NCBI GenBank assembly: GCA_003221515.1
Contig: QHSI01000015.1
Coordinates: 4,895-68,894, forward strand
Length of the DNA: 64,000 bases
Source: Candidatus Rokuibacteriota bacterium
Lineage (GTDB): Bacteria; Methylomirabilota; Methylomirabilia; Rokubacteriales; CSP1-6
Direction: 5' to 3'
Made by a program: the position numbers and the translations under genes
Part shown: positions 1,522 to 20,824 of the stretch, piece after piece
Layout: each line of letters begins with the position of its first letter
Numbering within the stretch: the first letter of the stretch is position 1
The notes under the pieces: generated by a model
The model's database searches: none
The model's input: only the letters and a program-made list of their open reading frames with translations
What the model was told of the DNA's origin: nothing

Positions 1522-1539
1522 ACAATGCAGGCTCTTTTC

Positions 1540-3501: not shown

Positions 3502-3502
3502 C

Positions 3503-4303: not shown

Positions 4304-4307
4304 GCGC

Positions 4308-5060
4308 ATGAACCTGCTCCGCTCACGTTTCGCCCAGGCCGTCCTGATCCTGATCGTCGCCTTCGTCGTCCTCAAGTTCGGCATTCGGCCGGCGGCGCCG
4401 TGGAGCGTCCTGACGCTCTACATGGCCATCGTGCTGCTCGCGGTGCTGGTGTTCGTGTCCTCCGACTCCGACTCGTGGCGCGACTTCGTGTGGCCGATCC
4501 GCGCGACGCTGGTCGATCCCAACCGGCGCCTGGCGCGGCTCGTGTTCCTGATCGTCCTGCCGCTCCTGTTCGGTTACTACGCGTACACGCAGGCAGCGGC
4601 CAAGCCGCAGGCGCCGCCGGAGCTGCGCGCGGTGCACCCGGCGCCGCCGGCGTCGATCCAGTTCCGCGGCAAGGAGATCCAGATCACCGGGCTCGACAAC
4701 CCGCTGCGCAAGGACCAGGCGAGCTACAAGAAGCACGTCGCCGCCGGCGCGGAGATCTACATCCGCAACTGCATGTACTGTCACGGCGACAACCTCGACG
4801 GCCGGGGTCACTTCGCGCACGGGTTCAATCCGCCGCCGGCGAACTTCCAGGATCCCGGCACGATCGCGATGCTGCAGGAGGCGTTCCTGTTCTGGCGCAT
4901 CGCGAAGGGCGGGCCGGGGCTGCCGAAGGAGTCGACGCCGTGGAACTCGGTCATGCCCGCGTGGGAAGATCGGCTGACCGAGGAGCAGACCTGGCAGGTC
5001 ATCATGTACCTCTACGACGCGACGGGGCAGCATCCGCGCCGGTGGGAAGAGGGGCATTGA
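4308..5060 (+). CDS. membrane cytochrome c (3 TM + monoheme domain)
   Basis: Hydrophobic N-terminal half, CMYCH, SVMPAW. Confidence 0.9.
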   Translation: MNLLRSRFAQAVLILIVAFVVLKFGIRPAAPWSVLTLYMAIVLLAVLVFVSSDSDSWRDFVWPIRATLVDPNRRLARLVFLIVLPLLFGYYAYTQAAAKPQAPPELRAVHPAPPASIQFRGKEIQITGLDNPLRKDQASYKKHVAAGAEIYIRNCMYCHGDNLDGRGHFAHGFNPPPANFQDPGTIAMLQEAFLFWRIAKGGPGLPKESTPWNSVMPAWEDRLTEEQTWQVIMYLYDATGQHPRRWEEGH

Positions 5061-6514: not shown

Positions 6515-6539
6515 TCTTGAACTCAGAAGGAGCGGGACA

Positions 6540-7238
6540 ATGCGCAGGGCATTGACAGCAGTCGTGGCGGTCGCGCTCGTGGCCGGCGTCGTTTTCGTCG
6601 CCCACCGACCGGATCAGGCCGGAGCGCAAGGCGGTGGGACGATCGAAGCGGCGGTGACGTTCGCCGGCGCGCCGGTCATCGAGAAGCTCAAGGTGAACAA
6701 GGACACCGAAAAGTGCGGAACCGAGACGGCGATCGAGAAGGTCGTCGTCGGCCCCAACAAGGGGCTCGCCTACGCCGTGGTCTCCGTCGCCGGCGCCAAG
6801 GGCGCAGCGACCGCGAAGAAGGCGACGATCGACCAGCACGGCTGCAAGTTCGTGCCGCACGTCCAGGCGATGACGCCGGGCGAGGTCGAGATCAAGAACT
6901 CCGACGACATCCTGCACAACATCCACACCTACTCGACCGCCAACGCCTCCATCAACAAGGCGCAGCCGAAGTTCAAGAAGGTGATGACCGAGAAGTTCGA
7001 GAAGCCCGAGATCATCAAGGTCACCTGTGACGTCCACAGCTGGATGCTCGGGTGGGTCGCCGTCATGCCCCATCCGTTCTTCGGCGTGACCGACGCCAAC
7101 GGCGCGACCAGGATCGAGAACGTGCCGCCCGGCAAGTACAGCGTCGAGGTGTGGCACGAGACGCTCGGCAAGCAGACGAAGGAGGTCGAGGTCAAGGCCG
7201 GGCAGACCGCGAAGGTCGCCATCGAGATGAAGAAGTAG
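6540..7238 (+). CDS. exported cupredoxin-like/carboxypeptidase-regulatory-like domain protein
   Basis: SD AGGAG, signal peptide, DQHGCKFVPHV, HNIH, CDVHSWM, VWHETLG. Confidence 0.8.
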   Translation: MRRALTAVVAVALVAGVVFVAHRPDQAGAQGGGTIEAAVTFAGAPVIEKLKVNKDTEKCGTETAIEKVVVGPNKGLAYAVVSVAGAKGAATAKKATIDQHGCKFVPHVQAMTPGEVEIKNSDDILHNIHTYSTANASINKAQPKFKKVMTEKFEKPEIIKVTCDVHSWMLGWVAVMPHPFFGVTDANGATRIENVPPGKYSVEVWHETLGKQTKEVEVKAGQTAKVAIEMKK

Positions 7239-7259
7239 AGCCAGGAGGATCGACCGCGC

Positions 7260-8021
7260 ATGCTTGACTGGTGGCTACCAGAGAACGTTTCGACCTACGG
7301 CCAGGAAATCGACTGGCTCTTCCACCTCATCTATTACATCACCGGCGTGACGTTCATCCTGGTCTTCGCCACGATGCTGGCGTTCATCGTGATGTACCGG
7401 GACCGTCCGGGCCGGAAGGCGCGCTACACCCACGGCAACACCACGCTGGAGATCGTCTGGACGGTGGTGCCGGCGCTGATTCTCGTGATCCTGACGCTGC
7501 TGAGCGTCCCGGCGTGGTCGAAGATCAAGATGACCATGCCGGAGACGGACTTCATCGTGCAAGTGACCGCGAAGCAGTTCAACTGGCAAATCACCTATCC
7601 CGGCCCCGACGGGAAGTTCGGCACCGCCGACGACAAGACGCTCCTCGACGAGATGCACGTGCCGGTCAACAAGATCGTCCGGGTCCACCTGAAATCGCAG
7701 GACGTCATCCATAGCTTCTTCGTCCCGCAGTTCCGGATGAAGCAGGACGCCGTACCGGGCCGCGAGATCAAGCAGTGGTTCGAGGCGACCAAGCCCGGCA
7801 AGTACGAGCTGCCGTGCGCCGAGCTGTGCGGGTTCGGCCACTCCGGCATGCGCGGGTGGATCTACGTCCACACCGCCGACGAATACGCGAAGTGGGCGGC
7901 CCAGAACCTGACCGCGGAGGCCGCCCCGACGACCGAGGCCAAACCCGACGACAAGGCCGACGCGAAGAAGGAAGCGCCGGGCAAGGCCGAGCCCAAGAAA
8001 GAGGGGAAAGCCAAGAAATGA
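7260..8021 (+). CDS. coxB: cytochrome c oxidase subunit II
   Basis: Two TMs, DVIHSF, CuA motif CAELCGFGHSGM; Lys-rich tail; no fused cytochrome c. Confidence 0.96.
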   Translation: MLDWWLPENVSTYGQEIDWLFHLIYYITGVTFILVFATMLAFIVMYRDRPGRKARYTHGNTTLEIVWTVVPALILVILTLLSVPAWSKIKMTMPETDFIVQVTAKQFNWQITYPGPDGKFGTADDKTLLDEMHVPVNKIVRVHLKSQDVIHSFFVPQFRMKQDAVPGREIKQWFEATKPGKYELPCAELCGFGHSGMRGWIYVHTADEYAKWAAQNLTAEAAPTTEAKPDDKADAKKEAPGKAEPKKEGKAKK

Positions 8022-9769
8022 GCGCCCATAGCGCGACCGCTCACGCGCACGTCGACCACGCCCGCCACGAGCTCGGCTTCGTGCGGACGTACATCTTCTC
8101 GACGGACCACAAGATGATCGCCCGCCAGTTCCTGTTCCTGGGCCTGTTCATGATGATCATCGGCGGCCTGCTCGCGCTGATCGTCCGCTGGCAGCTGGCC
8201 TGGCCGGAGACGGCGGTGCCCGGTCTCGGTGGCATCCTCAAGGAGACCGGCGGCATCCTGGAGCCCAGCACCTACAACATGGCGTTCACCATGCACGCCA
8301 CGATCATGATCTTCTTCGTGATCATGCCGATCCTGGCCGGCGCCTTCGGGAACTTCTGCATTCCGCTGATGATCGGCGCGCGCGACATGGCGTTCCCGTT
8401 CCTCAACATGCTGTCGTTCTGGGTGACCGGCAGCGCCGGCATCATCATGCTCTCCGGCTTCTTCGTGGAGGGCGGGCACGCCGCGGCCGGCTGGACCTCC
8501 TACGCGCCGCTCTCGGCGGTCGCGTCGTACACCGGCGTGAACTGGGGCCAGAACATCTGGTGCATCAGCCTGTTCATCATGGGTGTCGGTTCCATGATGG
8601 GCTCGATCAACTACATCACGACGATCATCAACATGCGGGCGCCGGGGATGAAGCTGTTCCGCATGCCGCTGGTGGTCTGGTCGCTGTTCATCACCGCGAT
8701 CCTGCTTCTGCTGGCCCTGCCGGTGCTGACCTCGGGCGTGGCCATGCTACTGTTCGACCGCACGCTCGGCACCAACTGGTTCAAGCCGGCTGGCGGCGGC
8801 GAGCCGCTGCTGTGGCAGCACCTCTTCTGGTACTTCGGCCACCCGGAGGTCTACATCCTGATCCTGCCGGCGATGGGCATCGCGTCGGAGATCCTGCCGG
8901 TCTTCTGCCGCAAGCCGATCTTCGGGTACCACGCGATGGCCTTCTCGATGATCGGCATCGCGTTCCTGTCCTGGATCGTCTACGGCCACCACATGTTCGT
9001 CAGCGGTATGAGCCCGGCGCTTGGGATGGCCTTCACGGTCACCACGATGATCATCGCGGTGCCGTCGGCCATCAAGACCTTCAACTGGCTCGGGACGATG
9101 TGGGGCGCGCGTATGCAGTTCACGGTCCCGATGCTGAACGCGCTGGCCTTCGTCTCGATGTTCGTCATCGGCGGGCTTTCGGGCATCTTCATGGCCTCGA
9201 CGCCGGTCGACATCTACATTCAGGACACGTACTTCATCGTGGCGCACATCCACTACGTGGTCTTCGGCGGCTCGATCTTCGGCGCGTTCGCCGCGATCTA
9301 CTACTGGTTCCCGAAGATGTTCGGCCGGATGACCAATCCCTTCCTCGGCCACCTGCACTTCTGGGGCACGTTCGTCTTCTTCAACCTGACCTTCTTCCCG
9401 ATGCACATCATCGGCGTCGGCGGCCAGATGCGCCGGATCTACAACCCGACGCAGTACGAGTTCCTCGTGCACCAGCAGGGCTGGAACGTGTTCATCACGT
9501 ACAGCGCGCTCCTCCTCGGCGTCTCCCAGATCCCGTTCGTCATCAACTTCTTCTGGTCGCTCTTCGCCGGGAAGCCGGCTCCGCTGAACCCGTGGAACGC
9601 CAACACCCTCGAGTGGACGGCGCCGTCGCCGCCGCCGCACTTGAACTGGGGCCCGACGCTGCCGACGGTGTACCGCGGACCCTACGAGTACAGCTCGCCG
9701 GAGTCCAAGGAAGACTTCCTCCCGCAGAACGTGCCGCCAGTGGGCGCCGCGGGAGCGCGGCGGCACTGA
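8018..9769 (+). CDS. coxA: cytochrome c oxidase subunit I, A1 type
   Basis: STDHK, TMHAT, GARDMAFP, GHPEVY, YGHHMF, VAHIHYV; ATGA overlap with coxB. Confidence 0.97.
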   Translation: MSAHSATAHAHVDHARHELGFVRTYIFSTDHKMIARQFLFLGLFMMIIGGLLALIVRWQLAWPETAVPGLGGILKETGGILEPSTYNMAFTMHATIMIFFVIMPILAGAFGNFCIPLMIGARDMAFPFLNMLSFWVTGSAGIIMLSGFFVEGGHAAAGWTSYAPLSAVASYTGVNWGQNIWCISLFIMGVGSMMGSINYITTIINMRAPGMKLFRMPLVVWSLFITAILLLLALPVLTSGVAMLLFDRTLGTNWFKPAGGGEPLLWQHLFWYFGHPEVYILILPAMGIASEILPVFCRKPIFGYHAMAFSMIGIAFLSWIVYGHHMFVSGMSPALGMAFTVTTMIIAVPSAIKTFNWLGTMWGARMQFTVPMLNALAFVSMFVIGGLSGIFMASTPVDIYIQDTYFIVAHIHYVVFGGSIFGAFAAIYYWFPKMFGRMTNPFLGHLHFWGTFVFFNLTFFPMHIIGVGGQMRRIYNPTQYEFLVHQQGWNVFITYSALLLGVSQIPFVINFFWSLFAGKPAPLNPWNANTLEWTAPSPPPHLNWGPTLPTVYRGPYEYSSPESKEDFLPQNVPPVGAAGARRH

Positions 9770-9786
9770 TCGGGGTGGAGAGCGCG

Positions 9787-10800
9787 GTGGCGCATCGCCT
9801 CGCCCTCGCGACGCTGGCCGCGACGTGCGTGCTCATCCTGTTCGGGGGGCTGGTCACGAACACCGGCGCCGCGCTCGCGGTGCCGGACTGGCCGAGCACG
9901 TTCGGCCACAACATGTTCCTGTTCCCCTGGTCGGGGATGGTGGGCGGGATCTTCTACGAGCACAGCCACCGCCTGATCGGTGCCCTCGTCGGGGTGCTGA
10001 CGCTCGGCCTGGCGGCGGCCCTCTGGCCGCTGGGCGGTCGGCTCCGCCGCCTCGGCCTCCTGGCCGTGACCGTCGTGCTCGCCCAGGGGCTGCTGGGCGG
10101 GCTCCGGGTGGTGCTCCTGCACGACACGCTCGCGATTTTCCACGGCAGCCTGGCGCAAGCGTTCTTCGCGCTGCTGGCGGCGATCGCGTGGCTGACGGCT
10201 CCGCGCGGAGCGGTGGCCGGGCCTCCGATCGCGCGCGAGGTCCAGGGGCTCGCGCTGCTGGCGGCCGGGCTCGTGTACGCGCAGATCGTGTTCGGCGCGC
10301 TCCTCACGCACGCTGGGCGCGTCGACCTGCACCTGGCCGGCGCCGTCGCGGTGTTCGTCGTCCTGCCGATCGTCACCGCGCGGCTGCGGAGAACGGGCGA
10401 TGTGGTCGCCGTCCGCGTCTCGCGCCTGCTCCTCGGCCTGCTCGGGATCCAGCTCCTGCTCGGCATCGGCAGCTTTCTCGCGCGTTTCTCGTCGCTGTGG
10501 ATTCCCGGTGAACAGCTCACGATGCTGATCCTCCCGGTGGCTCATCGCCTCCTCGGCAGCCTCCTCCTGGCCGCGACGGTCGTCCTCGCCGTGCGGGCCT
10601 TGACTCTGGCCAAGAAAGAGGCCGAGCAAGAGAAGGGAAGCCGCCGAGCGACCGATCGGGCGCTGACGATCCACGACGCGGTAGATCGGGCGCCGCGGAG
10701 CCACGCCGTGTCTACCGGTGATCGGGCGCCGCGGAGCCGCGCCGCATCTTTCTCAGGCCACCCTCGATGCGAGCCGGCCTCGAGGCGCTCGCTCCAATGA
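9787..10800 (+). CDS. ctaA: heme A synthase (COX15/CtaA), Cys-less loop type, with repeat-containing C-terminal tail
   Basis: GGLVTNTGAALAVPDWP, EHSHRL, QGLLGGLRV, FHG, AHR; GGAG before GTG 9787. Confidence 0.85.
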   Translation: MAHRLALATLAATCVLILFGGLVTNTGAALAVPDWPSTFGHNMFLFPWSGMVGGIFYEHSHRLIGALVGVLTLGLAAALWPLGGRLRRLGLLAVTVVLAQGLLGGLRVVLLHDTLAIFHGSLAQAFFALLAAIAWLTAPRGAVAGPPIAREVQGLALLAAGLVYAQIVFGALLTHAGRVDLHLAGAVAVFVVLPIVTARLRRTGDVVAVRVSRLLLGLLGIQLLLGIGSFLARFSSLWIPGEQLTMLILPVAHRLLGSLLLAATVVLAVRALTLAKKEAEQEKGSRRATDRALTIHDAVDRAPRSHAVSTGDRAPRSRAASFSGHPRCEPASRRSLQ

Positions 10801-11723
10801 CTCCGCCGGCCCTCGACACGGCCCGCGTCTCGACCGAAGTGGTCGTCGGCGCGCTCGCGCGCGATCGCCGGCGTGTCGTCGCCGACCTCGTCGCGCTGGC
10901 CAAGCCCCGCGTCGTCCTGATGGTCATGGTGACGACGGCCGTCGGATACTACGTCGGGTTGACCGGCGCGCCGGACTACGCCCGGCTCGTCCACTTGCTG
11001 ATCGGCACGCTCCTGGCCGCTGGCGGCACGCTCGCGCTGAACCAGTACTGGGAGCGCGACGTCGACGCGCGCATGGAGCGCACGCGCGCGCGGCCGCTGC
11101 CCGACGGACGGCTGGCGCCGCTCGAGGCGCTCCTCTTCGGCGGCGCCGTCACGCTGGTCGGGCTCGCGTACCTGGGCGCACTCGTGAGCACGCTCTCGCT
11201 CGTGGTGACCGCGCTGACGACGGCGCTCTACCTGTTCGCCTACACGCCCCTGAAGCTGCGGACGCCCCTTTGCACGATCGTCGGCGCGGTGCCCGGCGCG
11301 CTGCCGCCGGTGACGGGTTGGGTGGCGTCGCGCGACGATCTCGGCGTCGGCGCCTGGGTGCTCTTCGGGATCATGTTCCTCTGGCAGCTGCCCCACACGC
11401 TCGCGATCGCGCGCCTCTACCGTGACGACTACGCGCGCGCCGGCGTGCGCCTGCTGCCGGTCGTCGACGCCGAGGGCACCAGCACCGAGCGCCAGATCGT
11501 CACCGGCTGTCTGGCCCTGCTCGCGGTGAGCCTGCTGCCCACGCTGATCGGGCTGGCCGGGCCGATCTACTTCGTCGGCGCGTTCCTCCTGGGCGCGGCC
11601 TTCGTCGTGCTCGGCGCGCGTCAGGCGCTGGCGCCGTCGGCCGGCTCCGCGCGGCGGGTGCTGCTCGCCTCGCTCCTCTATCTCCCGGTGCTTCTCGCCT
11701 TGCTGGCGTTCGACAAGGTATGA
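10797..11723 (+). CDS. ctaB: protoheme IX farnesyltransferase (heme O synthase)
   Basis: KPRV, NQYWERDVDARMERTRARPLP, YTPLK, GAVPGALPP, WQLPH. Confidence 0.96.
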   Translation: MTPPALDTARVSTEVVVGALARDRRRVVADLVALAKPRVVLMVMVTTAVGYYVGLTGAPDYARLVHLLIGTLLAAGGTLALNQYWERDVDARMERTRARPLPDGRLAPLEALLFGGAVTLVGLAYLGALVSTLSLVVTALTTALYLFAYTPLKLRTPLCTIVGAVPGALPPVTGWVASRDDLGVGAWVLFGIMFLWQLPHTLAIARLYRDDYARAGVRLLPVVDAEGTSTERQIVTGCLALLAVSLLPTLIGLAGPIYFVGAFLLGAAFVVLGARQALAPSAGSARRVLLASLLYLPVLLALLAFDKV

Positions 11724-11818
11724 CGACCGACACCCGCAACCGACAGACCGTTCGCGTGCTCCTCACGATCGTGGCGGTGCTCATGGTGGCGGCGTTCCTC
11801 GTCGGGATCCGCTGGTGA
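11720..11818 (+). CDS. 32-aa single-TM microprotein (oxidase small assembly/accessory protein candidate)
   Basis: MTTDTRNRQTVRVLLTIVAVLMVAAFLVGIRW*. ATGA overlap with ctaB and GTGA overlap with coxC. Below the ORF-track size cutoff. Confidence 0.8.
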   Translation: MTTDTRNRQTVRVLLTIVAVLMVAAFLVGIRW

Positions 11819-12486
11819 CGACGCTCACCGTCGAGCACCCGACCGACCCGCGCCGGACCAACGGGAGCCTCCCGCCGGTGCCGCCCGAAGGGGGCGGCGG
11901 CGACGGACCCGATCGTGATCCGGCGCCGCGCCGCCCGCCGCTCGACAACGTGCGGCTGGCGATGCTGTTCCTCATCTGCGCCGAGGTCATGTTCTTCGGC
12001 GGTCTCGTTTCCGCGTTCCTCGTGCTGCGCGTCACCGCCGCCGTCTGGCCGCCACCGCTCCAGCCGCGGCTGCCCGTCGGCGTGACCGCCGTGAACACGC
12101 TCGTGCTGTTCGCGTCCAGCGTGGCGATGGCGGCGGCGCGCCAGGCGCTCCGTCGCGACGACGCGCGCGCGCTCGTCCGACGGCTCGGGCTGGCCGCCGG
12201 GCTCGGCGGCGCGTTCTTGCTGGTGCAGGGCTACGAGTGGGTCCGTCTCGTCTCGTTCGGCCTCACGCTCTCGTCGGACGCGTACGGGACCACCTTCTAC
12301 TCGCTCATCGGCGCGCACGCCGCGCACGTCCTCGGCGCGCTCGTCTGGGTGGCGGTGGTGGCGCTGCTCGCCGCTCGCGGCCGGTTCACCGATGGGCGCA
12401 CCGGCCCGTTGCGGGCGTGCGCGATCTACTGGCACTTCGTGGTCGCGCTGTGGCCGATCCTGTTCGTGGCGGTGTACCTGATATGA
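11815..12486 (+). CDS. coxC: cytochrome c oxidase subunit III (first copy)
   Basis: AEVMFFGGL, NTLVLFASS, QGYEW, GAHAAHV, YWHFV. Confidence 0.92.
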   Translation: MTTLTVEHPTDPRRTNGSLPPVPPEGGGGDGPDRDPAPRRPPLDNVRLAMLFLICAEVMFFGGLVSAFLVLRVTAAVWPPPLQPRLPVGVTAVNTLVLFASSVAMAAARQALRRDDARALVRRLGLAAGLGGAFLLVQGYEWVRLVSFGLTLSSDAYGTTFYSLIGAHAAHVLGALVWVAVVALLAARGRFTDGRTGPLRACAIYWHFVVALWPILFVAVYLI

Positions 12487-12749
12487 GAGCGGGAGTCCTC
12501 GTCGCGCTCCTGCTCATGCTGGCGCCGCGGTCGGCCCAGGCGTGCGCGACGTGCATCGCGTCGCCGTTCGGGGACCAGACCTACACGTGGCCGTACCTCG
12601 GATTGATCTTGCTCCCCTTCGTGCTGCTCTCGGCCGTGCTCGGCATCTTCGCCCACTCCGCCGGCTATCGCCCGCACGTCCTGGCGCGTCGGCTGGCAGC
12701 TCGCGTCTCGGCCAAAGACGACTCTCAGATCATCAAGGAGACGACATGA
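12483..12749 (+). CDS. small exported membrane protein with N-terminal CxxC after the signal peptide
   Basis: MRAGVLVALLLMLAPRSAQA|CATC, one TM, ATGA overlaps at both ends. Confidence 0.75.
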   Translation: MRAGVLVALLLMLAPRSAQACATCIASPFGDQTYTWPYLGLILLPFVLLSAVLGIFAHSAGYRPHVLARRLAARVSAKDDSQIIKETT

Positions 12750-13363
12750 GTCACGTAGCCTCGGCGCATGGGGCGGTGGAGCCCGCCGAGTCGCCCCTCA
12801 CGCCCGAAAGCTGGGGAAAGCTCGGAATGTGGATCTTCCTCGCCGGCGACGCGGTCGGCTTCGGCACGCTCCTGGCCGGTTACGGCGCGATGCGGGCCAC
12901 CAGCGCCGACTGGCCTTCGCCGTTCGCGGTTCTCGGGATCAACCTGACGGCCGCCATGACCTTCCTGCTGATCTGCTCGAGCGTGACGATGGTGAAGGCG
13001 CTCGAGTGGCTGGGCAAGGGGGACAAGGAGCGCGCGAAGGCGTTTCTCTTCTTCACCGCGCTCGGCGGCGCGATCTTCGTCAGCCTGCAGGCGTACGAGT
13101 GGTCGCATCTGATCCACCGCGGCCTGCTCATCAGCGGCAACCCGTGGGGCGCCGCCCTCTTCGGCGCGTCCTTCTTCATCGTGACCGGCTTCCATGGCCT
13201 GCACGTCACCGGCGGCGTCATCTATCTGCTGGCGATATTGCGGGCCGTCGCGAACCGTCCCGAGCCGGCGGCCAGCTACAACGCGGTCGAGATCGCCGGG
13301 CTCTACTGGCACTTCGTCGACCTCGTCTGGATCATGGTGTTCACCTTCATGTACCTCCTGTAA
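12746..13363 (+). CDS. coxC: cytochrome c oxidase subunit III (second copy)
   Basis: KLGMWIFL, TGFHGLHV, GLYWHFVDLVW; SD AAGGAG. Confidence 0.93.
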   Translation: MSHVASAHGAVEPAESPLTPESWGKLGMWIFLAGDAVGFGTLLAGYGAMRATSADWPSPFAVLGINLTAAMTFLLICSSVTMVKALEWLGKGDKERAKAFLFFTALGGAIFVSLQAYEWSHLIHRGLLISGNPWGAALFGASFFIVTGFHGLHVTGGVIYLLAILRAVANRPEPAASYNAVEIAGLYWHFVDLVWIMVFTFMYLL

Positions 13364-13375
13364 GAGGACGAGGCC

Positions 13376-13705
13376 ATGGCGACGGCAGAGCACAAGCATC
13401 CGAACTACATGGCGATCTTCTGGTTCCTCGCGATCCTCACCGTGGTCGAGATCGCGGTGATCTACATGCCGCTGGCGAAGTTCACGATCGGCGTGCTGCT
13501 GTGCGCGCTGGCGCTCGGCAAGGCGACGATGGTCGCGATGTATTTCATGCACCTCCGCTTCGAGGCTCGCACCCTCGGCATGATCGCGGTCGTGCCGTTG
13601 CTGATCGCGACGCTCCTGATCTTCGTCCTGCTGCCCGACGGCTTCGCGGTCATGAAGCGGACGGTCGGCGTCAAGCCGGCCGCGACCGAGCCCGCCAAGC
13701 ACTGA
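13376..13705 (+). CDS. coxD: cytochrome c oxidase subunit IV
   Basis: LAILTVVE, KATMVAMYFMHL; 3 TMs. Confidence 0.9.
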   Translation: MATAEHKHPNYMAIFWFLAILTVVEIAVIYMPLAKFTIGVLLCALALGKATMVAMYFMHLRFEARTLGMIAVVPLLIATLLIFVLLPDGFAVMKRTVGVKPAATEPAKH

Positions 13706-13736
13706 GTGGGCCGCTCTGGGGCCGGCGGGGGCAGCG

Positions 13737-14105
13737 GTGGACTCCGGGCGTTTGGTCGACCGGCTCGTCCCGGCCCTGCGACGGGCAGCGCGTCTGCGCT
13801 GTCCCCGCTGCGCGGGCGCGCCGCTCTTCCGTACCTGGACTTCGATGGCCGACGCGTGCGCCCTGTGCGGGCTCCGCTTCGAGCGGGCCCAGGGCTACTT
13901 CGTCGGGGCGATCTACATCAACTACGCGGTGACGGTGCTCGTCGCGATCGTCGGTTTCCTCCTCTTGTGGGGCATCGCGGGCTTCTCGACACGAGGGCAG
14001 CTTGCGGTGCTGGTGCCGCTGGTCGCCATCTTTCCATTGTGGTTCTTCCGTTACAGCCGGAGCTTCTGGCTCGCCGTCGAGTGGTCGATCAACCCCGAGT
14101 CCTGA
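13737..14105 (+). CDS. DUF983-like zinc-ribbon membrane protein
   Basis: CPRC..CALCG, GYFVGA, two TMs. Confidence 0.75.
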   Translation: MDSGRLVDRLVPALRRAARLRCPRCAGAPLFRTWTSMADACALCGLRFERAQGYFVGAIYINYAVTVLVAIVGFLLLWGIAGFSTRGQLAVLVPLVAIFPLWFFRYSRSFWLAVEWSINPES

Positions 14106-14116
14106 GGCCGGCCGGC

Positions 14117-14863
14117 GTGGGCGCGATCGTCGCGTTCCTCGGGCTGCTGCTCACCGCCGGCCCGCTCGGCGCCTACGAGGCGGTCACGGTCAAGGACGGC
14201 GGCACGATTGCGGGCGTCGTTCGCTTCGCCGGCGCGCCGCCCAAGCTCGGCGCGATCCCGGTCAACAAGAACCGCGACGTCTGCGGCGACGAGAAGCCGT
14301 CGGAGGCGCTGGTGGTCGGGGCCGACCGCGGCGTGCGGGACGGCGTGGTGCTGATCGAGGGCGTGGCCCGCGGCAAGAAAGGCGCTGGCGACGTCATCCT
14401 CGACAACCGGAAGTGCCTGTTCGTGAGCCACGTGACCGTGGTGGCGCCCGGCGATCGCGCGCGCGTGCGCAACTCGGATCCGATCCTCCACAACACGCAC
14501 GGATTCCTGGGCCAGCCCACCGTCTTCAACCTGGCGCTGCCGAACAAGGACCAGATGATCGACATCACGAAGCGGCTGCAGAAGCCGGGGGTGGTCCGCG
14601 TGGTGTGCGACGCGCACCCGCACATGTTCGCGTGGATGATCGTGCACGACAGCCCGTACGTGGCGGTGACCGACGACAGGGGCGCGTTCCGCATCGGCGA
14701 CGTCCCGCCCGGGACGTACAAGGTCACCATGTGGCACGCCGGATACCGGCCCAAGGGATCGGACAAGGACGGCCGGCCCGTCTACGACGAGCCGAAGACG
14801 CTGACGAAGGAGCTGACGATCGCGCCGAAAGCGACGGTGACGGTCGAGTTCGAACTGAAATAG
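14117..14863 (+). CDS. second exported cupredoxin-like/carboxypeptidase-regulatory-like protein
   Basis: Paralogous to 6540-7238: DNRKCLF, HNTH, CDAHPHM, MWH. Confidence 0.8.
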   Translation: MGAIVAFLGLLLTAGPLGAYEAVTVKDGGTIAGVVRFAGAPPKLGAIPVNKNRDVCGDEKPSEALVVGADRGVRDGVVLIEGVARGKKGAGDVILDNRKCLFVSHVTVVAPGDRARVRNSDPILHNTHGFLGQPTVFNLALPNKDQMIDITKRLQKPGVVRVVCDAHPHMFAWMIVHDSPYVAVTDDRGAFRIGDVPPGTYKVTMWHAGYRPKGSDKDGRPVYDEPKTLTKELTIAPKATVTVEFELK

Positions 14864-14874
14864 AGGGGGACGTC

Positions 14875-16785
14875 ATGTTCAAGCACATCTGCGTGCCGGT
14901 GGACAACTCGGAGTATTCGAACCGGGCGATCGACCTGGCGGTCGAGCTGGGTCGGCCGGGCGGGGCGAAGCTGACCGGCGTCCACGTGTACGCCGCGCGG
15001 CTGCACGATTACCGGTTCAAGCAGATGGAGTACACGCTGCCCGAGGAATACAAGGACGAGAACGAGCTCGAGCGCCAGCGGAAGATCCACGACTCGCTGA
15101 TCGCCATGGGGCTCCAGCTCATCTCCGAGTCGTACCTGGACGTGATGGCGCGCAAGGCCGGCGCGGCCGGGCTCGCCTTCGAGTCCAAGATGATCGACGG
15201 CAAGCACTACAAGGTGCTCATCGACGACTGCCTCGCCGCCGACTACGACCTGGTGGTCATGGGCGCCCTGGGGATGGGCGCGGTCAAGGACAGCCAGCTC
15301 GGCTCGGTCACCGAGCGGTTCGTCCGCCGCGTGTCGCGCGACACGCTCATCGTCCGCAACACCGACGCGTTGAAGGACCAGCAGGGGCCGATCGTCGTGT
15401 GCCTCGACGGCTCGCCGCAGTCCTTCAACGGCCTCCAGCTCGGCGTCGGAATGGCGAAGGCGCTCGGCCGGCCGCTGCAGGCGGTGGCGGTCTACGACCC
15501 GTACCTCCACTACGCGATGTTCAACGGCATCGTCGGCGTGCTGAGCGAGAAGGCATCGAAGATCTTCCGCTTCAAGGAGCAGGAGCAGCTGCACGAGGAG
15601 ATCATCGACACCGGATTGGCCAAGATCTACCAGTCGCACCTGGAGATCGGCCGCAAGCTCGCCGCCGACTCCGGCGTCGAGCTGGCCATCACGCTCCTCG
15701 ACGGCAAGTGCTTCGAGAAGATCCTGACGTTCGTGCGCAAGGAGCATCCCTGGCTCCTCATCCTGGGGCGGGTGGGCGTGCACTCGGACGAGAACGAAGT
15801 CGATCTCGGCTCCAACACCGAGAACCTCCTGCGGCTGGCCCCGTGCAACGTGCTGCTGACCGGCGGCAAGTTCTATCCGCCGCTCGACGTGAAGGCCGAG
15901 GAGATCATCTCCTGGACCGAAGAGGCCGAGGCCCGGATGGAGCGGGTGCCGCTGCAGGTGAAGGGCGTGGCGCGCACGGCGCTGCTGCGGTACGCGATCG
16001 AGCAGGGGCACACCGTCATCACCAACAAGGTCATCGACGAGGCGATGGCGATCTTCATGCCGACCCGCCTGGCCGAGCGCATGCAGATCCTCGCCGAGGA
16101 CGTCGCGGTCGCGAAGCTGCGGGCCGAGTCCCAGCCGGCGACGGCCATCTGCTCCATCTGCGGCTACACGGTCAAAGGCCCGAACCCGGTCGTCACGTGC
16201 CCGGTCTGTCGCGCCGGCGCCGACAAGTTCCAGGTCATCTCGAAGGAGACGGTCGAGGCGATCGCCGCTCAGGAAGGCGGGATCGAGGAAGAAGAGTCGA
16301 TGCCCGGTGTCCAGGTGAAATGGTCGGCCGACGCGCGCGACGCCCTGCGCGAGGTGACCGACGCGTACCTTCGCCGGCGGGCCAAGGCCCGGATCGAGAA
16401 GTACGCGCGTTCGCGCCGGATCCCGGTCATCACCTGCCAGCTGGCGCTGCCGATGATCGAAGAGACCGTCGGGCGCGACAAGCTCGGCGCGGGCTGGGAT
16501 ACACTCCTGGCCAAGACCAAGTTCGAGCCCGCCGAGATGCCGAGCGCCCCCGCGCCGGCCGGCGGCGGCCCGGGCTTCGGCTGGACGGACGAGGCCACGG
16601 CGCGCCTGAACCGCGTGCCCGCTGGGTTCATGCGCGATATGACGCGCGAGGAAGTCGAGCGGGTGGCGGGCGCTAAAGGTGTCACGACCATCGACCTGGC
16701 GGTTTGCGAAGAAGGCATCGGGCATGCCCGCGAGACGATGAACGAGGTCATCGCGGGGTACGTGTCGAACAAAAAACCGCGATAG
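14875..16785 (+). CDS. tandem universal-stress-protein domains + three PCP_red-like domains + rubredoxin-like domain
   Basis: SD GAGGGGG. MFKHICVPVDNS and VVCLDGS USP starts; GALG-x9-GS ATP motif; W(T/S)xxA helical repeats at about 15913, 16321 and 16582; CSIC..CPVC. Confidence 0.85.
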   Translation: MFKHICVPVDNSEYSNRAIDLAVELGRPGGAKLTGVHVYAARLHDYRFKQMEYTLPEEYKDENELERQRKIHDSLIAMGLQLISESYLDVMARKAGAAGLAFESKMIDGKHYKVLIDDCLAADYDLVVMGALGMGAVKDSQLGSVTERFVRRVSRDTLIVRNTDALKDQQGPIVVCLDGSPQSFNGLQLGVGMAKALGRPLQAVAVYDPYLHYAMFNGIVGVLSEKASKIFRFKEQEQLHEEIIDTGLAKIYQSHLEIGRKLAADSGVELAITLLDGKCFEKILTFVRKEHPWLLILGRVGVHSDENEVDLGSNTENLLRLAPCNVLLTGGKFYPPLDVKAEEIISWTEEAEARMERVPLQVKGVARTALLRYAIEQGHTVITNKVIDEAMAIFMPTRLAERMQILAEDVAVAKLRAESQPATAICSICGYTVKGPNPVVTCPVCRAGADKFQVISKETVEAIAAQEGGIEEEESMPGVQVKWSADARDALREVTDAYLRRRAKARIEKYARSRRIPVITCQLALPMIEETVGRDKLGAGWDTLLAKTKFEPAEMPSAPAPAGGGPGFGWTDEATARLNRVPAGFMRDMTREEVERVAGAKGVTTIDLAVCEEGIGHARETMNEVIAGYVSNKKPR

Positions 16786-16919
16786 GCGCGGGAGAGGGGG
16801 CGGGGGGCCTCCCGGAATCCGACTGCCGCTCCGCGCAGCGGGCCAATTTACATGCGCTTGATCAGGACGACGCTGACTACACGGATTCCGGGAGGCCCCG
16901 CGCCCCCTCTCCCGCGCCT
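16784..16919. mobile_element. MITE/REPIN-like element with 38-bp terminal inverted repeats
   Basis: 16784-16821 versus reverse complement of 16882-16919: one mismatch in 38 bp; 60-nt core. Confidence 0.65.
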
Positions 16920-16969
16920 CCATGGATCCCGACGACTGAGCCCCGCGTGCCTTCACCCACGTCTTACAC

Positions 16970-18472
16970 GTGACTGATCCAGCGTCCGATCACATCGCTG
17001 CTCGCACCGGCGTCCCGACTTCGGCGGCTGCCGCGCCGCCTTCAGCGTCGGCGAGCGCGCAATCGTCGGCGTCGCCCGGCGCGCAATCATCGGCCGCGCC
17101 GGCGGGCGCCGTGAATCCGTATACGGCGTATAGCGTGTCGTGGAATTTGACTCAGCGCTGCAATCTCGAGTGCGCGCACTGCTACATGTCGGCGTTTGCT
17201 GGGGCCGATACGCGGGGGGAGCTCGGGACCGACGAGTGCCGGCGGGTGATGGACGAGATTGCGCGGGTCAATCCGCACGTGTTCTTGATCCTGACGGGCG
17301 GCGAGCCACTGTTGCGGAAGGACATTTGGGACGTGGCGGCGTACGCTGCCGAGAAGCGGTTCACGACCGTGTTCGGAACGAACGGCCTCCTGCTGCGTGA
17401 GAAGGAAGCCGCCTGTATGCGCGAGCACGGTGTGCTCGGCGCTTCGATCAGTCTGGATTCGACCGACCGTGTGAAGCACGACGCGTTCCGCCATCTGGCC
17501 GGCGCCTGGGACGGAGCGGTGCGGGCGACCCGCGTGCTGACCGACGCCGGCCTCGATTTCTCCCTGCACATGTCGGTGACCGACTGGAACGTCGCCGAGG
17601 TCCCCGCGATGATCGACCTCGCGAAGGAGCTCGGCGCCAAGGTGCTGAACTTCTTCTTCCTGGTGCGGACCGGTCGCGGTCGAGACCTCACCGACATCGA
17701 CGCCGCCGCGTACGAACGCATCCTGACGTACCTGGCGCGCACGCAGGGTGTCGGCACGGAACCGCCGTCGTTCGTGAAGCGGATGCTCGGGATGGGCGGC
17801 GGCGCGTCGGAGAAATTCGAGGACCCGTGGTCGCTGCCGGTCGGGCGCGCCGACGGGCTGCTGATCCGCGCCAAGTGCGCGCCGCACTTCCGGCGCGTCC
17901 TCTACCAGATGAACCCGTCCTCTCCGCTCCTCATGAACTACGCCCACGGCTCGTGTCCGGCCGGGAAGTACTATTGTCGAATCACGCCCGAGGGCGACGT
18001 CACGCCGTGCCCGTATATGCCGGTGTCGGCGGGGAACCTGCGCGAACGGTCCTTCGACGATCTGTGGCGCGGCGCGCCGGTGTTCGACGACCTGCGCGAC
18101 CCCAAGCTCGGTGGACGCTGCGGCGCCTGCGAGTTCTCGAAGCTCTGCGGCGGCTGCCGCTGCCGCGCCTACGCGACCCACGGCGACTACCTGGCGGAGG
18201 ATCCCGCGTGCGGCTATCAGCCGGGCGCGCACGGCGGCCGGCTGATCGACGTGCCGGCGTCGCTCACGTTCGGGCTGCCGCCCGACTATCAGTTGGAGTG
18301 GGCCGAGGACGCGCGCGAGCGGCTGCACGCGATTCCCTCGTTCGCGCGCGGGATGGTGGTGAAGGCCGTCGAGGTGTACGCGCGTGGCCGCGGCGAGACC
18401 GTCATCACGAAGGAGCTCCTCGCCGACGTCCGCTCCAAGTGGGGCGGCCGCTTCCGGCCGTCGTCGCCATGA
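16970..18472 (+). CDS. radical SAM/SPASM protein, AhbD/NirJ-like, with C-terminal PCP_red-like domain
   Basis: WNLTQRCNLECAHCY, TGGEPL, CAPH, CPAG..TPCPY, CGAC..CGGCRCRAY..DPAC; tail WAEDARERLHAIPSFARGMV. True start may be GTG 17111. Confidence 0.88.
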   Translation: MTDPASDHIAARTGVPTSAAAAPPSASASAQSSASPGAQSSAAPAGAVNPYTAYSVSWNLTQRCNLECAHCYMSAFAGADTRGELGTDECRRVMDEIARVNPHVFLILTGGEPLLRKDIWDVAAYAAEKRFTTVFGTNGLLLREKEAACMREHGVLGASISLDSTDRVKHDAFRHLAGAWDGAVRATRVLTDAGLDFSLHMSVTDWNVAEVPAMIDLAKELGAKVLNFFFLVRTGRGRDLTDIDAAAYERILTYLARTQGVGTEPPSFVKRMLGMGGGASEKFEDPWSLPVGRADGLLIRAKCAPHFRRVLYQMNPSSPLLMNYAHGSCPAGKYYCRITPEGDVTPCPYMPVSAGNLRERSFDDLWRGAPVFDDLRDPKLGGRCGACEFSKLCGGCRCRAYATHGDYLAEDPACGYQPGAHGGRLIDVPASLTFGLPPDYQLEWAEDARERLHAIPSFARGMVVKAVEVYARGRGETVITKELLADVRSKWGGRFRPSSP

Positions 18473-18897
18473 TGGACAGATTTCGGCTCGCCGCCCACGC
18501 GTACCGGACCTACGGCGTGATCTACTGGATCGGCGGCTTCTATCTCATCTGGCACGGAGTCGGGGTCCGAGGCGGTCGCACCGCGGACTCGGGCGTCGTC
18601 TGGATCGTGCTGGGGCTCGTCTTCATCGTGGTCATCCCGTATCTCCTCGCCCAGCGCCGCGCGTGGTTCGAGCGCTGGATCGTTTCGCGCCGCGATTTCG
18701 CCCGCATCCTCGTCGCGTTCATGGCCTGGCGAGCCTGGCATGTCCTGAAGGTCGTGATTCGCCCGGAGACCGCGCGCGTGTCCGCGCCCTGGGGGGGTGA
18801 GATCACCTTCCGCGTCGGCGCCTGTGTGTTCCTGATCGTGACCGTGGCCGCGTTGCTGGTGATCGCTCGGGCGGCCTGGGCGACGGAAGCCGCATGA
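18469..18897 (+). CDS. hypothetical 4-TM membrane protein
   Basis: ATGA overlaps on both sides; hydrophobic segments. Confidence 0.7.
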   Translation: MMDRFRLAAHAYRTYGVIYWIGGFYLIWHGVGVRGGRTADSGVVWIVLGLVFIVVIPYLLAQRRAWFERWIVSRRDFARILVAFMAWRAWHVLKVVIRPETARVSAPWGGEITFRVGACVFLIVTVAALLVIARAAWATEAA

Positions 18898-19751
18898 AGC
18901 GATACCGGGACATCGCCGGTGACGGTGGCTCCAACATCGTGGGCCAGGTCGAGGCCCAGCTCGGCAAGCTCCGGCAGCGCCTCGCCTCCGTCGGCGCGGT
19001 CGTCGCCGTGGTCTCCGGCAAGGGCGGCGTGGGCAAGTCGACGCTCGCCGCGAACCTCGCCTGCTGCCTGGCGCTCGACGGCTCCCGCGTGGGCGTCCTC
19101 GACGCGGATCTCAACGGCCCGACGCAGGCCAAGGTGCTGGGGGTCCGCGGCCGGCGGCTGGTCGTGACCGACGAGGGCGTCGAGCCGCCGCGCGGCGCGC
19201 TCGGAGTCAAGGTCATGTCGATGGACCTGCTGCTGGCCGCGGACGCCACGCCCCTCACGTGGGACGCGCCCGTCCAGGACGAGGCCCACACCTGGCGCGG
19301 GACCGTCGAAGCGAACGCGATCCGTGAGTTCCTGGCCGACACGAACTGGGGCACGCTGGACGCGCTCGTCCTCGACCTGCCGCCGGGCACCGACCGGCTT
19401 CTGACGATCGCCTCGCTGGTGCCGACGCTCGGTATCGTCATCGTGACGATCCCGTCCGACGTGTCCCACCTGGTCGTGCGGAAGTCGATCACGGTGGCCG
19501 CGCAGACGAAGTCCCCGGTTCTCGGACTCGTCGAGAACATGGCCGGACTCTTCCCGGGCCCCGACGCGGCGAAGCTCGCCGCGGACGGCGGGATCCCGTA
19601 CCTCGGGAGCGTGCCGTTCGATCGCGAGCTCGCCGTCTCCGCCGATCGGGGAGAGCCGCTGGTCGCCACGGCGCCGGAGCGTGAGTCGGCGCGCGCGCTG
19701 CAGCTCATCGCGCGCGCGATTCGCGCCGCGCTGGCGCCGCGCGCGGTGTGA
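18894..19751 (+). CDS. Mrp/NBP35/ApbC-family P-loop ATPase lacking the CxxC motif
   Basis: SGKGGVGKST, DADLNGP, WRG, DLPPGT, VENM followed directly by AGLFPG. Confidence 0.88.
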   Translation: MKRYRDIAGDGGSNIVGQVEAQLGKLRQRLASVGAVVAVVSGKGGVGKSTLAANLACCLALDGSRVGVLDADLNGPTQAKVLGVRGRRLVVTDEGVEPPRGALGVKVMSMDLLLAADATPLTWDAPVQDEAHTWRGTVEANAIREFLADTNWGTLDALVLDLPPGTDRLLTIASLVPTLGIVIVTIPSDVSHLVVRKSITVAAQTKSPVLGLVENMAGLFPGPDAAKLAADGGIPYLGSVPFDRELAVSADRGEPLVATAPERESARALQLIARAIRAALAPRAV

Positions 19752-19950: not shown

Positions 19951-19967
19951 GGGTCGAGTCGCCCTGC

Positions 19968-20675: not shown

Positions 20676-20824
20676 GCCGGATTGACTCAGCATGCGCCGT
20701 GCCAACGACATCCCCTATAGATCACCGAGACTCAGCCTGCCTGCAGGCCGCCCGACAGGGTCAAACTGACGTGGCGTGACATCCGGATCGACACTCCACG
20801 GCACCTCGATTCGACGAGAGTCGA

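Follow-up and report, generated by a model that had tools for sequence, protein, structure and literature searches.

The window analysed here is a 64,000-nucleotide stretch from a soil Rokubacteria genome, in which a small group of genes, hereafter the module, closes a cluster of respiratory oxidase genes (Table 1). The radical SAM, membrane protein and Mrp genes overlap by 4 bases each and are translationally coupled. A reading of the DNA from its letters alone (the sequence-only reading) had linked the module to upstream oxidases. Such oxidases are present, but the one adjoining the module is a caa3-type haem-copper oxidase with ctaA/ctaB, whereas the bd-like oxidase lies farther upstream and is not the immediate oxidase neighbour. 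The order of the cox/cta genes is kept across Rokubacteria loci. The 142-aa membrane protein gave no Pfam or NCBIfam match; it is fast-evolving and restricted to Rokubacteria-like loci, being found in 67 of the 80 Rokubacteria loci with 37-45% identity in the most distant ones, and it shows no homology to the CopD-like protein that takes the equivalent position in other lineages.

Table 1. Features of the module and of the oxidase genes upstream of it. Positions are those of the window.
Feature	Position	Strand	Evidence
bd-like CydA homologue	1663-3501	+	Pfam; part of upstream linked set 1663..6514
Two membrane cytochromes c	3503-4303, 4308-5060	+	Pfam; upstream linked set
Cytochrome c/EB_dh protein	about 5057-6514	+	Pfam; upstream linked set
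CarboxypepD_reg-like gene, coxII, coxI, ctaA, ctaB, two coxIII-like, coxIV, second CarboxypepD_reg-like gene	6495..14863	+	
USP-USP-PCP_red-rubredoxin-PCP_red-PCP_red protein, 636 aa	14875..16785	+	Pfam Usp E 1.2e-36, PCP_red E 6.8e-27, RUBY_RBDX E 7.9e-9
Tandem USP domains, residues ~1-161 and ~172-332	14875..15870	+	Pfam Usp, 2 stretches; tandem-USP PDB matches 3ab7, 2jax, 3cis
PCP_red copy 1	15913..16044	+	44.9 bits (whole-genome PF08369 scan); aligned with other copies
Rubredoxin-like knuckle (CSIC ... CPVC), residues 426-453	16150..16233	+	PF21349 35.3 bits, cut-off 26.5
PCP_red copy 2, divergent	16321..16440	+	30.6 bits alone, below the 32.5 cut-off; alignable to other copies
PCP_red copy 3	16582..16713	+	45.8 bits; best Pfam stretch, residues 570-613
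AhbD-like radical SAM/SPASM enzyme with C-terminal PCP_red	17111..18472	+	Likely start GTG 17111; open frame from 16970
CX3CX2C radical SAM cluster motif, Cys 64, 68 and 71 of 500-aa frame	17159..17182	+	Invariant in alignments
Full eight-Cys SPASM motif with AhbD spacing, residues 303-414	17876..18211	+	Regular expression from PMC10452713 motif
PCP_red of radical SAM enzyme	18299..18430	+	50 bits (genome scan); Pfam residues 444-487
142-aa membrane protein	18469..18897	+	Start overlaps radical SAM stop; stop overlaps Mrp start
Mrp/ApbC/NBP35-family P-loop ATPase, Cys-less variant	18894..19751	+	PF10609 216.5 bits

Pfam searches recovered the Usp, rubredoxin knuckle, Radical_SAM and SPASM domains that the sequence-only reading had named. 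In the 636-aa protein, which has relatives in 472 genome stretches, Usp scores 126.8 bits, and each USP domain carries a G-x2-G-x9/10-G-S motif (residues 130 and 298, the second with 10 residues between) that we take to be the ATP-binding USP motif G-2x-G-9x-G(S/T). The solved tandem USPs TTHA0350 (PDB 3ab7) and TB31.7/Rv2623 (2jax, 3cis) likewise have two motif-bearing domains. Absent from them is the extra 300-residue tail of the window's protein, with its three PCP_red domains around the rubredoxin-like knuckle.

Three PCP_red-like repeats in the USP protein and a fourth in the radical SAM protein had also been proposed, and PF08369 (Pfam gathering cut-off 32.5 bits) matches both proteins, with 93.7 bits over three stretches in the former and 45.9 bits (E 5.8e-12) in the latter; the conserved Trp codons of the four copies fall at exactly 15913, 16321, 16582 and 18299. 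Searched against the PDB, a profile of these copies matches the last ~50 residues of the DPOR subunit BchB/ChlB (474-524, E about 1e-7 to 1e-8; for example 3aek_B 474-524 of 525, E 9.9e-8) and two stand-alone PCP_red NMR structures, 2kru and 2l09. The domain common to all of these spans ~45 residues, and its conserved positions are W, A, (I/V)P, F-R, R, E, A and (I/V)T. By this comparison the sole other known home of PCP_red outside the module is DPOR, a tetrapyrrole enzyme of the chlorophyll pathway. A full-length DPOR BchB acting with BchN and BchL was ruled out, since only the C-terminal stretch of the DPOR subunit B model matches (TIGR01278, profile positions 458-509 of 512, 64.6 bits against a cut-off of 490); the rest of BchB is absent here, as are BchN and BchL. 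The only other PF08369 matches in a whole-genome scan are two small proteins, and by the PF08369 test the genome is non-phototrophic. PCP_red appears to be a tag common to the radical SAM enzyme, its USP partner and a Zn-ribbon adaptor described below, and would either assemble these proteins or handle a tetrapyrrole.

The radical SAM protein is represented in the Atlas from residue 48 onward, has homologues of 446-503 aa, and gave an AF2 model with a mean pLDDT of 89.9 and a pTM of 0.87. Its best NCBIfam models are NirJ2 (TIGR04055, 302.8 bits) and AhbD (TIGR04545, 297.2 bits), in line with its earlier description as AhbD/NirJ-like; NirJ2 is another name for AhbD. However, every equivalog cut-off failed (500 for each of these two models), and the enzyme is therefore not a curated AhbD. 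The AhbD model gives 280, 277 and 307 bits for three relatives, from other groups, that also bear PCP_red, and its match to the window's enzyme is split by an insertion of ~50 residues. With AhbD of Methanosarcina barkeri and Desulfovibrio vulgaris, the coprohaem decarboxylase (haem b synthase), the enzyme shares CX3CX2C and a full eight-Cys SPASM motif spaced as published; a regular expression built from the AhbD motif as printed in PMC10452713 matches the window's enzyme, 23 of 26 representatives of the PCP_red clade and 41 of 87 others. Unlike AhbD, the window's enzyme bears a C-terminal PCP_red domain (up to four copies in some lineages), comes with a dedicated USP-PCP_red partner, and adjoins terminal oxidase genes, in aerobic or microaerobic lineages, with no ahbABCD set. 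A tree of the core region (113 rows) places all 26 PCP_red-bearing rows inside one 32-row clade (SH-like 94), which adjoins a 50-row clade with near-AhbD sequences. Judged by its sequence, the enzyme falls into a clade of its own, PCP_red-tailed and neighbouring AhbD.

Among solved structures, the closest are those of PqqE and of peptide maturases (SkfB, PqqE, SuiB), and many NCBIfam peptide-maturase models match with E < 1e-20. Both observations would fit an enzyme that does not act on tetrapyrroles but modifies a peptide or protein, for example a subunit of the neighbouring oxidase or a cytochrome, with PCP_red as a protein-recognition domain. We consider this very unlikely: tetrapyrrole families lead by a wide margin (300 bits, compared with 153 at most), the Cys residues are spaced in the manner specific to AhbD, no small precursor-peptide gene is conserved among the clustered neighbours, and both the genomic company of hemY (see below) and the occurrence of PCP_red in DPOR point to tetrapyrroles.

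The genome, which is 95% complete, has adjacent hemE, hemH and hemY genes. Neither an AsnC_trans_reg2 sirohaem decarboxylase domain (AhbA/B), nor a second, AhbC-like SPASM gene, nor HemF was found in it, and its best match to HemN scores 129.8 bits against a cut-off of 325. A bona fide ChdC was not found either; the sole gene of the Chlor_dismutase family scores 26.9 against 235 and 21.8 against 253 on the HemQ equivalog models, and passes the broad Pfam cut-off (43.7 against 25) with its C-terminal half only. A 2026 review (PMC13564367) describes AhbD in prokaryotes of the CPD pathway that have no other AHB enzymes, and hemE-hemH-hemY without AhbA/B or a second AhbC-like gene fits that case by gene content. 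Since hemE-hemH-hemY are present while AhbA/B, HemN, HemF and a bona fide ChdC were not found in this genome, an oxygen-independent coprohaem decarboxylase is the best reading of the enzyme. One relative labelled Nitrosomonadales counts against this, since Nitrosomonadales use the protoporphyrin route, which would offer no obvious substrate to a coprohaem decarboxylase.

Relatives of the module carry the names Rokubacteria, Planctomycetota, Nitrospinota, Nitrosomonadales, Binatia, Dehalococcoidia and Deltaproteobacteria, and Atlas clusters are headed by Acidobacteriota, Gemmatimonadota and Nitrospirota. Beyond Rokubacteria we sampled 71 loci in 37 lineages. Of the 34 metagenome loci that extend 2.2 kb or more upstream, 21 (in 14 of 23 lineages) have the USP gene immediately before the radical SAM gene on the same strand, and in 10 no USP gene was found. 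Conservation of the genes together holds for this pair and is less constant for the Mrp gene, which is present in 21 of the 71 loci (6 of the 18 that have 4 kb or more on each side); in 4 of those 18 none of the partners was found. hemY (TIGR00562, 246 bits) occurs in 11 of the 71 loci and is adjacent in 10 lineages.

The suggested co-occurrence with bd-like oxidases was borne out, with the bd-like gene in 24 of the 71 loci. The four families of the upstream set (bd-like CydA, two cytochromes c and the cytochrome c/EB_dh protein) adjoin the module in other phyla as well, and the composition of the set is identical to that of the 'bd-like_3 / alternative NxrC' cluster of Nitrospira and of the OR-N family, as described in PMC6606698 and 10.1101/2021.01.16.426971. 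The main texts of both papers mention no radical SAM, USP or PCP_red neighbour ('radical sam' and 'universal stress', 0 occurrences each), and we found no published description of the module. Across 151 genomes of the phylum, the radical SAM enzyme and the USP protein are both present in 89, both absent from 51 and found singly in 11; the corresponding numbers for the enzyme and the bd-like gene are 88, 50 and 13, and a Zn-ribbon-PCP_red protein and the enzyme are both present in 85 and both absent from 49, although these counts overstate the association because related genomes are not independent. The module travels with terminal oxidases, the bd-like one included, so a haem-related role is the best reading, and an oxidase-linked haem role is plausible.

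The enzyme is not needed for haem in the phylum. It is absent from 56 of the 151 genomes, and the enzyme-less genomes among those listed retain a CoxI paralogue of ~50% identity and the same weak ChdC-like gene; 34 phylum genomes have the enzyme plus a strong ChdC-type gene. Dispensability, together with gain and loss alongside the bd-like gene, would suit an enzyme that makes no bulk haem b but tailors a haem or haem precursor, giving the linked bd-like (OR-N type)/cytochrome c/EB_dh complex or the neighbouring oxidase a special cofactor, with the PCP_red proteins as haem carriers. This is also consistent with a clade distinct from AhbD and below its cut-off, with a bd-like set adjoining the enzyme in a third of the loci of other lineages, and with the accessible parts of 10.1101/2021.01.16.426971 and PMC6606698, which do not establish the cofactors of OR-N bd-like enzymes. 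Nevertheless, we think tailoring improbable. In Rokubacteria the supercluster, cox/ctaAB included, is present or absent as a unit, so the bd-like gene is not singled out; elsewhere the bd-like gene was not seen in 47 of the 71 loci, many of them on short contigs. The adjacency of hemY fits ordinary haem synthesis, and the Cys motif and nearest relatives are those of a coprohaem decarboxylase.

The Cys-less SIMIBI/Mrp ATPase that had been recognised at the end of the gene run belongs to the ParA/NUBPL family by its Pfam match, and shares full-length similarity and the deviant Walker A motif (GKGGVGKS, invariant in the alignment) with the Mrp/ApbC/NBP35 Fe-S carriers. Unlike these carriers it falls under the equivalog cut-offs (MrpORP, NF041136, 209 against 450; ApbC, NF008669, 152 against 348) and has no CxxC, the motif that in this family bridges an Fe-S cluster at the dimer interface; the region is missing after ENMAG through a deletion of ~11 residues. 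Four aligned Rokubacteria-like copies have the same deletion, but 8 of 11 copies from other lineages keep the CxxC, and the Cys-less form is therefore a local, derived loss. Outside Rokubacteria, across the 71 loci, a Mrp gene in the module is always paired with a gene for a Zn-ribbon-PCP_red protein, an adaptor carrying a Cys-Pro-Phe motif; in this genome the adaptor gene is unlinked to the module. A complex model of Mrp with the adaptor scored 0.67, against 0.31 for the best of 3 controls. Of 80 solved complexes 58 attain the mark set by the model, as do 2 of 110 mismatched pairs, although this calibration is only rough because custom alignments and ATP were included. At least 89% of contacts agreed between runs, and the partner pLDDT was at least 71. 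All confident contacts in this one model lie in partner residues 1-85 (Zn-ribbon and linker), and none in PCP_red at about 113-160. The model supports binding of Mrp to its partner via the Zn-ribbon, not via PCP_red.

These results bear on the central proposal of the sequence-only reading, that PCP_red repeats are docking modules for the SIMIBI ATPase, by analogy with BchB-BchL, and build a complex, gated by ATP and redox state, in which a USP sensor and a rubredoxin donor join the radical SAM enzyme and the ATPase. Three protein types do carry PCP_red, a SIMIBI ATPase is often encoded alongside, its gene is coupled to that of the enzyme in the window, and the model has it bind one PCP_red-bearing protein. 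However, the predicted contacts bypass PCP_red, the Mrp gene was found in a minority of loci, and most copies keep the ordinary CxxC of an Fe-S carrier. In DPOR itself, the accessible part of PMC12022308 assigns the helix that reaches the substrate in trans to BchB 398-420, outside the PCP_red stretch, and states no PCP_red-BchL contact. Docking of PCP_red on the ATPase is therefore not supported, and we consider the gated complex unlikely.

We give an even chance to the interpretation that the window holds the form taken in Rokubacteria by a conserved accessory module, one that provides the respiratory cluster with haem, its enzyme being most likely an oxygen-independent coprohaem decarboxylase. 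An AhbD-type enzyme would turn Fe-coproporphyrin III (coprohaem) into haem b without oxygen, the final step of a coproporphyrin-dependent pathway otherwise encoded by hemE-hemH-hemY. SAM would be cleaved at the CX3CX2C cluster, leading to abstraction of hydrogen from the propionates, and the remaining electron may leave by way of the two auxiliary clusters. The dedicated partner would be the USP-PCP_red-rubredoxin protein of the gene immediately upstream, its tandem USP domains probably sensing nucleotide or energy state and its rubredoxin-like centre being a candidate for relaying electrons. For the Mrp-family ATPase, Fe-S cluster supply or assembly for the three-cluster enzyme is the most likely role, and this ATPase is predicted to bind the Zn-ribbon-PCP_red adaptor, encoded elsewhere in the genome, through its Zn-ribbon. 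A bolder version, to which we assign a low probability, makes PCP_red a general tetrapyrrole-handling or client-tagging domain, and the PCP_red proteins with Mrp a machine that produces haem, possibly tailored, and delivers it to the bd-like (OR-N)/alternative-NxrC complexes of nitrite oxidisers, anammox bacteria and many soil phyla.

This gene set is widely conserved and undescribed, and its enzyme most likely makes haem b without oxygen. If so, many abundant aerobic and microaerobic bacteria of soil and water would end haem synthesis with a radical SAM enzyme hitherto attributed to archaea, sulfate reducers and some Gram-positives, aided by helper proteins that had gone unnoticed as a set. 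PCP_red would also gain its first function outside chlorophyll synthesis, and there would be a handle on the cofactor supply of the enigmatic bd-like oxidase complexes of nitrifiers. With few, adjacent genes and an existing AhbD assay, the module is testable.

The four genes that run from the USP protein to the Mrp-family ATPase are all co-directional, with the start of the membrane-protein gene overlapping the enzyme stop and the Mrp start overlapping the membrane-protein stop. The sequence-only reading had proposed three PCP_red domains in the USP protein and one at the end of the adjacent radical SAM/SPASM enzyme. The table below shows that Pfam and PF08369 matches confirm each of these, and the conserved Trp codons fall exactly at the positions it gave. 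The enzyme copy spans residues 444–487 (Pfam, E 5.8e-12). In ten PDB sequences, a profile of the copies matches the final ~50 residues of BchB/ChlB, and it also matches two stand-alone PCP_red structures.

Features of the module and its surroundings (window positions unless a contig of the same genome is named; PCP_red bit scores are from the PF08369 whole-genome scan)
Feature	Position	Strand	Match or remark
bd-like CydA homologue	1663–3501	+	PF01654, 56 bits
CarboxypepD_reg-like gene, first	6495–7238	+	
CarboxypepD_reg-like gene, second	about 14100–14863	+	
USP protein, 636 aa	14875–16785	+	Pfam: two Usp, rubredoxin-like knuckle, three PCP_red stretches (E 6.8e-27)
PCP_red copy 1, USP protein	15913–16044	+	44.9 bits
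PCP_red copy 2, USP protein	16321–16440	+	30.6 bits
PCP_red copy 3, USP protein	16582–16713	+	45.8 bits
Radical SAM/SPASM enzyme	open frame 16970–18472, likely GTG start 17111	+	Pfam: Radical_SAM, SPASM, PCP_red
PCP_red of enzyme	18299–18430	+	50 bits
142-aa membrane protein	18469–18897	+	
Mrp-family ATPase	18894–19751	+	
339-aa ORF	23215–24234	-	start MPSDLLGDLLRQVSRSFYLSL
Zn-ribbon–PCP_red gene	contig C19, L081:1159–1653	+	
Small protein, weak PCP_red-like C-terminus	contig C66, L086 ~1411–1900	-	24.1 bits, under cut-off

Some 325 bases (16786–17110) separate the USP stop from the likely GTG start of the enzyme, a gap that contains no promoter-like site and no Rfam match. Read from 16970, the frame gains 47 residues rich in Ala, Ser and Pro, which are absent from homologues and from the Atlas record. 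The small protein on contig C66 has a coiled-coil-like N-terminus before its PCP_red-like end. Further along the window, the 339-aa ORF beginning MPSDLLGDLLRQVSRSFYLSL resembles, and may be, a squalene/phytoene synthase family protein.

The enzyme had been called AhbD-like, and this assignment holds in that NirJ2 (302.8 bits) and AhbD (297.2 bits) are its top-scoring NCBIfam models, yet each score is far below the 500-bit cut-off; an insertion splits the match. The protein carries a CX3CX2C motif, and its residues 303–414 contain all eight Cys of the SPASM motif, spaced as PMC10452713 gives it for AhbD of methanogens and sulfate reducers. In a set of 150 cluster representatives (50% identity), the nearest full-length relatives almost all have a C-terminal PCP_red, some with two to four copies. 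A tree of the catalytic core alone (113 of 151 rows, leaving out rows shorter than 320 aa, without CX3CX2C or with a core below 300 aa) places 26/26 PCP_red rows within a single clade of 32 rows (SH-like 94), of which the six without PCP_red may be truncated sequences. This clade adjoins a 50-row clade containing near-AhbD sequences (405–456 bits), and true NirJ2 (533 bits) is placed elsewhere. The AlphaFold2 model is confident (pLDDT 89.9, pTM 0.87) and resembles SPASM enzymes. Taken together, the family scores, Cys motif, relatives, tree and model predict AhbD-like action for a separate subfamily.

A fold search with the model gave generic SPASM enzymes and nothing else; the PDB entries searched include no AhbD structure. 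Like most SPASM enzymes, the enzyme could instead be a peptide or protein maturase, which we consider very improbable. Every known PCP_red host is a tetrapyrrole enzyme or the neighbour of one. Conserved PCP_red surface positions are common to BchB and all copies in the module. In DPOR, cryo-EM work describes a BchB helix (398–420) that reaches the pigment in trans (PMC12022308); this helix lies upstream of the PCP_red stretch. No statement on the role of BchB 474–524 was found in the parts of the DPOR literature that were searched.

The window genome is 95% complete and has hemE, hemH and hemY adjacent to one another. No sirohaem decarboxylase domain, HemF or second AhbC-like enzyme was found in it, and its sole HemN-family match is HemW-like (129.8 bits vs 325). 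A coproporphyrin-dependent route without a recognisable last enzyme fits an AhbD-type decarboxylase, and AhbD is present in such coproporphyrin-route organisms according to a 2026 review (PMC13564367). Complementarity between ChdC and the enzyme was sought across 151 phylum genomes, and no such pattern was seen (strong ChdC and enzyme both in 34, enzyme only in 61, strong ChdC only in 20, neither in 36); the comparison leaves the function undecided. Chlor_dismutase-family matches in the phylum sample fall into a full-length class (~150–209 bits) and a C-terminal-half class (~40–53 bits). In the window's family 83/89 genomes have some match and nearly all have the weak class, which could thus represent a divergent coprohaem decarboxylase or some other protein.

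The bd-like CydA homologue is followed on the same strand by two membrane cytochromes c, a cytochrome c/EB_dh protein and a CarboxypepD_reg-like gene, then by coxII, coxI, ctaA, ctaB, two coxIII-like genes, coxIV and a second CarboxypepD_reg-like gene, all upstream of the module. By Pfam, the 1663–6514 set (the CydA homologue, the two membrane cytochromes c and the cytochrome c/EB_dh protein) has the same make-up as the 'bd-like_3 / alternative NxrC' cluster that PMC6606698 describes for Nitrospira, Nitrospina and anammox bacteria. The cox/ctaAB genes have a CarboxypepD_reg-like gene on either side, and this family occurs near the module in 9/18 other-lineage loci whose flanks each reach 4 kb or more.

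The window's genome is assigned to a Rokubacteria (Methylomirabilota) MAG on the strength of 97% identity to named records, and neighbourhoods were compared within and beyond the Rokubacteria. Of 472 relatives, 80 Rokubacteria loci were kept, and these share one gene order wherever the contig reaches (enzyme 73/80, membrane protein 67/80, Mrp 62/80); these are close kin at 76–97% identity, so the uniform synteny is not counted as independent support. For other lineages, the query for scanning metagenome contigs was an alignment headed by a distant member; 80 loci were kept and nine Rokubacteria-like ones dropped, leaving 71 loci in 37 lineages at 70% identity. Representatives' names include Planctomycetota, Nitrospinota, Nitrosomonadales, Binatia, Dehalococcoidia and Deltaproteobacteria, and Atlas clusters are led by Acidobacteriota, Gemmatimonadota, Pseudomonadota and Nitrospirota. 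The counts are limited by contig ends, and metagenome gene calls are heuristic. The pairing of USP and enzyme genes proved to be kept: where at least 2.2 kb upstream is available, a USP gene lies directly upstream on the same strand in 21/34 loci (14/23 lineages) and a USP domain gene anywhere in 24/34 (17/23 lineages). In three USP-less loci, Mrp and the Zn-ribbon gene take the direct upstream place. Mrp and the Zn-ribbon–PCP_red gene, side by side in the gene maps, are each near the enzyme gene in 21/71 loci (15/37 lineages), hemY (TIGR00562, 246 bits) in 11 (10 lineages), coxI in five (three lineages) and a CopD-like membrane gene in nine (one lineage). Of the 18 loci that extend at least 4 kb on each side, four show none of the partners.

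The bd-like oxidase was found near the enzyme gene in 24/71 loci (14/37 lineages) and was not seen in the remainder, although many contigs are short. That the enzyme tailors a haem for the bd-like complex is a reading that draws on the first group of loci and is at variance with the second, and we hold it to be unlikely.

In one lineage (L115, L126, L134, L136), the USP gene has upstream of it an slr0320-like B12-binding radical SAM gene (447.6 bits vs cut-off 775), itself preceded in L126, L134 and L136 by a UbiE-like methyltransferase, and the gene after the enzyme encodes a CopD-like membrane protein of 170 aa. This protein or hemY occupies the post-enzyme position in other lineages. The 142-aa membrane protein of the window has no match in Pfam or NCBIfam, and hhalign gives no support for its being a counterpart of either (0.8% probability, 11 columns).

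The window Mrp was correctly described as Cys-less, its CxxC motif having been lost by deletion. The motif is also absent from four Rokubacteria-like copies and three others; since 8/11 copies of other lineages retain it, the alignments indicate a local loss within an ordinary Fe-S carrier ATPase family. The sequence-only reading had further proposed that PCP_red domains are docking modules of a complex that includes this ATPase. Two Mrp copies with ATP and the genome's own Zn-ribbon–PCP_red protein, given as alignments, were modelled as a complex. It scored 0.67, and the best of three controls reached 0.31. A mark of 0.67 is reached by 58/80 solved complexes and 2/110 mismatched pairs, a calibration that is only rough because alignments of our own and a ligand went into the job. 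Contact agreement between runs was at least 89% and partner pLDDT at least 71. The model supports binding of Mrp to the Zn-ribbon–PCP_red protein. However, the confident contacts of the partner are at residues 1–85 (Zn-ribbon, linker), and its PCP_red domain (about 113–160) has none with Mrp. The model tells against PCP_red as the part that docks on the ATPase, and docking of that kind is improbable. In 8/11 aligned Zn-ribbon–PCP_red copies (L081, L164, L127, L142, L165, L168, L159, L135) the linker contains a (G/S)(K/R/G)-Cys-Pro-Phe motif, which we take to resemble Cys-Pro haem regulatory motifs.

No promoter was found in 13600–20200, Rfam gave no match at the gathering threshold in 13000–21000, and the five terminators found in 13600–20200 (2.6 ± 1.9 expected) include none usefully placed between genes. 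Small module contigs occur in three soil metatranscriptome runs, all from one study. One of 321 nt is identical over 14691–15008, bridging the upstream gene and the USP start, and a 170-nt stretch over 14872–15041 has one difference; the only pieces that cover the enzyme gene are 90–95% alike, and a pile at 19004–19060 is the P-loop of other organisms. As DNA can occur in RNA libraries and the contigs show no single transcript, we draw no inference on transcription.

The reading we prefer, with the balance about even, is that the enzyme is an oxygen-independent coprohaem decarboxylase serving the respiratory cluster. AhbD needs an outlet for the electron of each decarboxylation, according to PMC10452713. 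The USP-rubredoxin protein would act as a regulator and/or electron relay for the enzyme, and Mrp would supply or assemble Fe-S clusters. No description of the module was found in the literature on PCP_red/PF08369, nothing relevant on AhbD in these phyla in the literature search, and no mention of radical SAM among the bd-like, cytochrome bd and Nitrospira matches listed; radical SAM or universal stress neighbours are likewise absent from the main texts of the bd superfamily preprint (10.1101/2021.01.16.426971) and the Nitrospira transcriptome paper (PMC6606698).

Across the 151 phylum genomes, each at least 80% complete (kin among them are not independent, and up to five are flagged unpublished, with no claim resting on these), the radical SAM enzyme is present in 95, the USP-PCP_red protein and the bd-like gene in 94 each, and the Zn-ribbon–PCP_red gene in 92. 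All four occur together in 77, none in 47 and one to three in 27. The module-less genomes listed still have a ~50%-identity CoxI paralogue and a weak ChdC-like gene. We conclude from this that the module is an accessory tied to the respiratory supercluster, and not the phylum's sole haem route.
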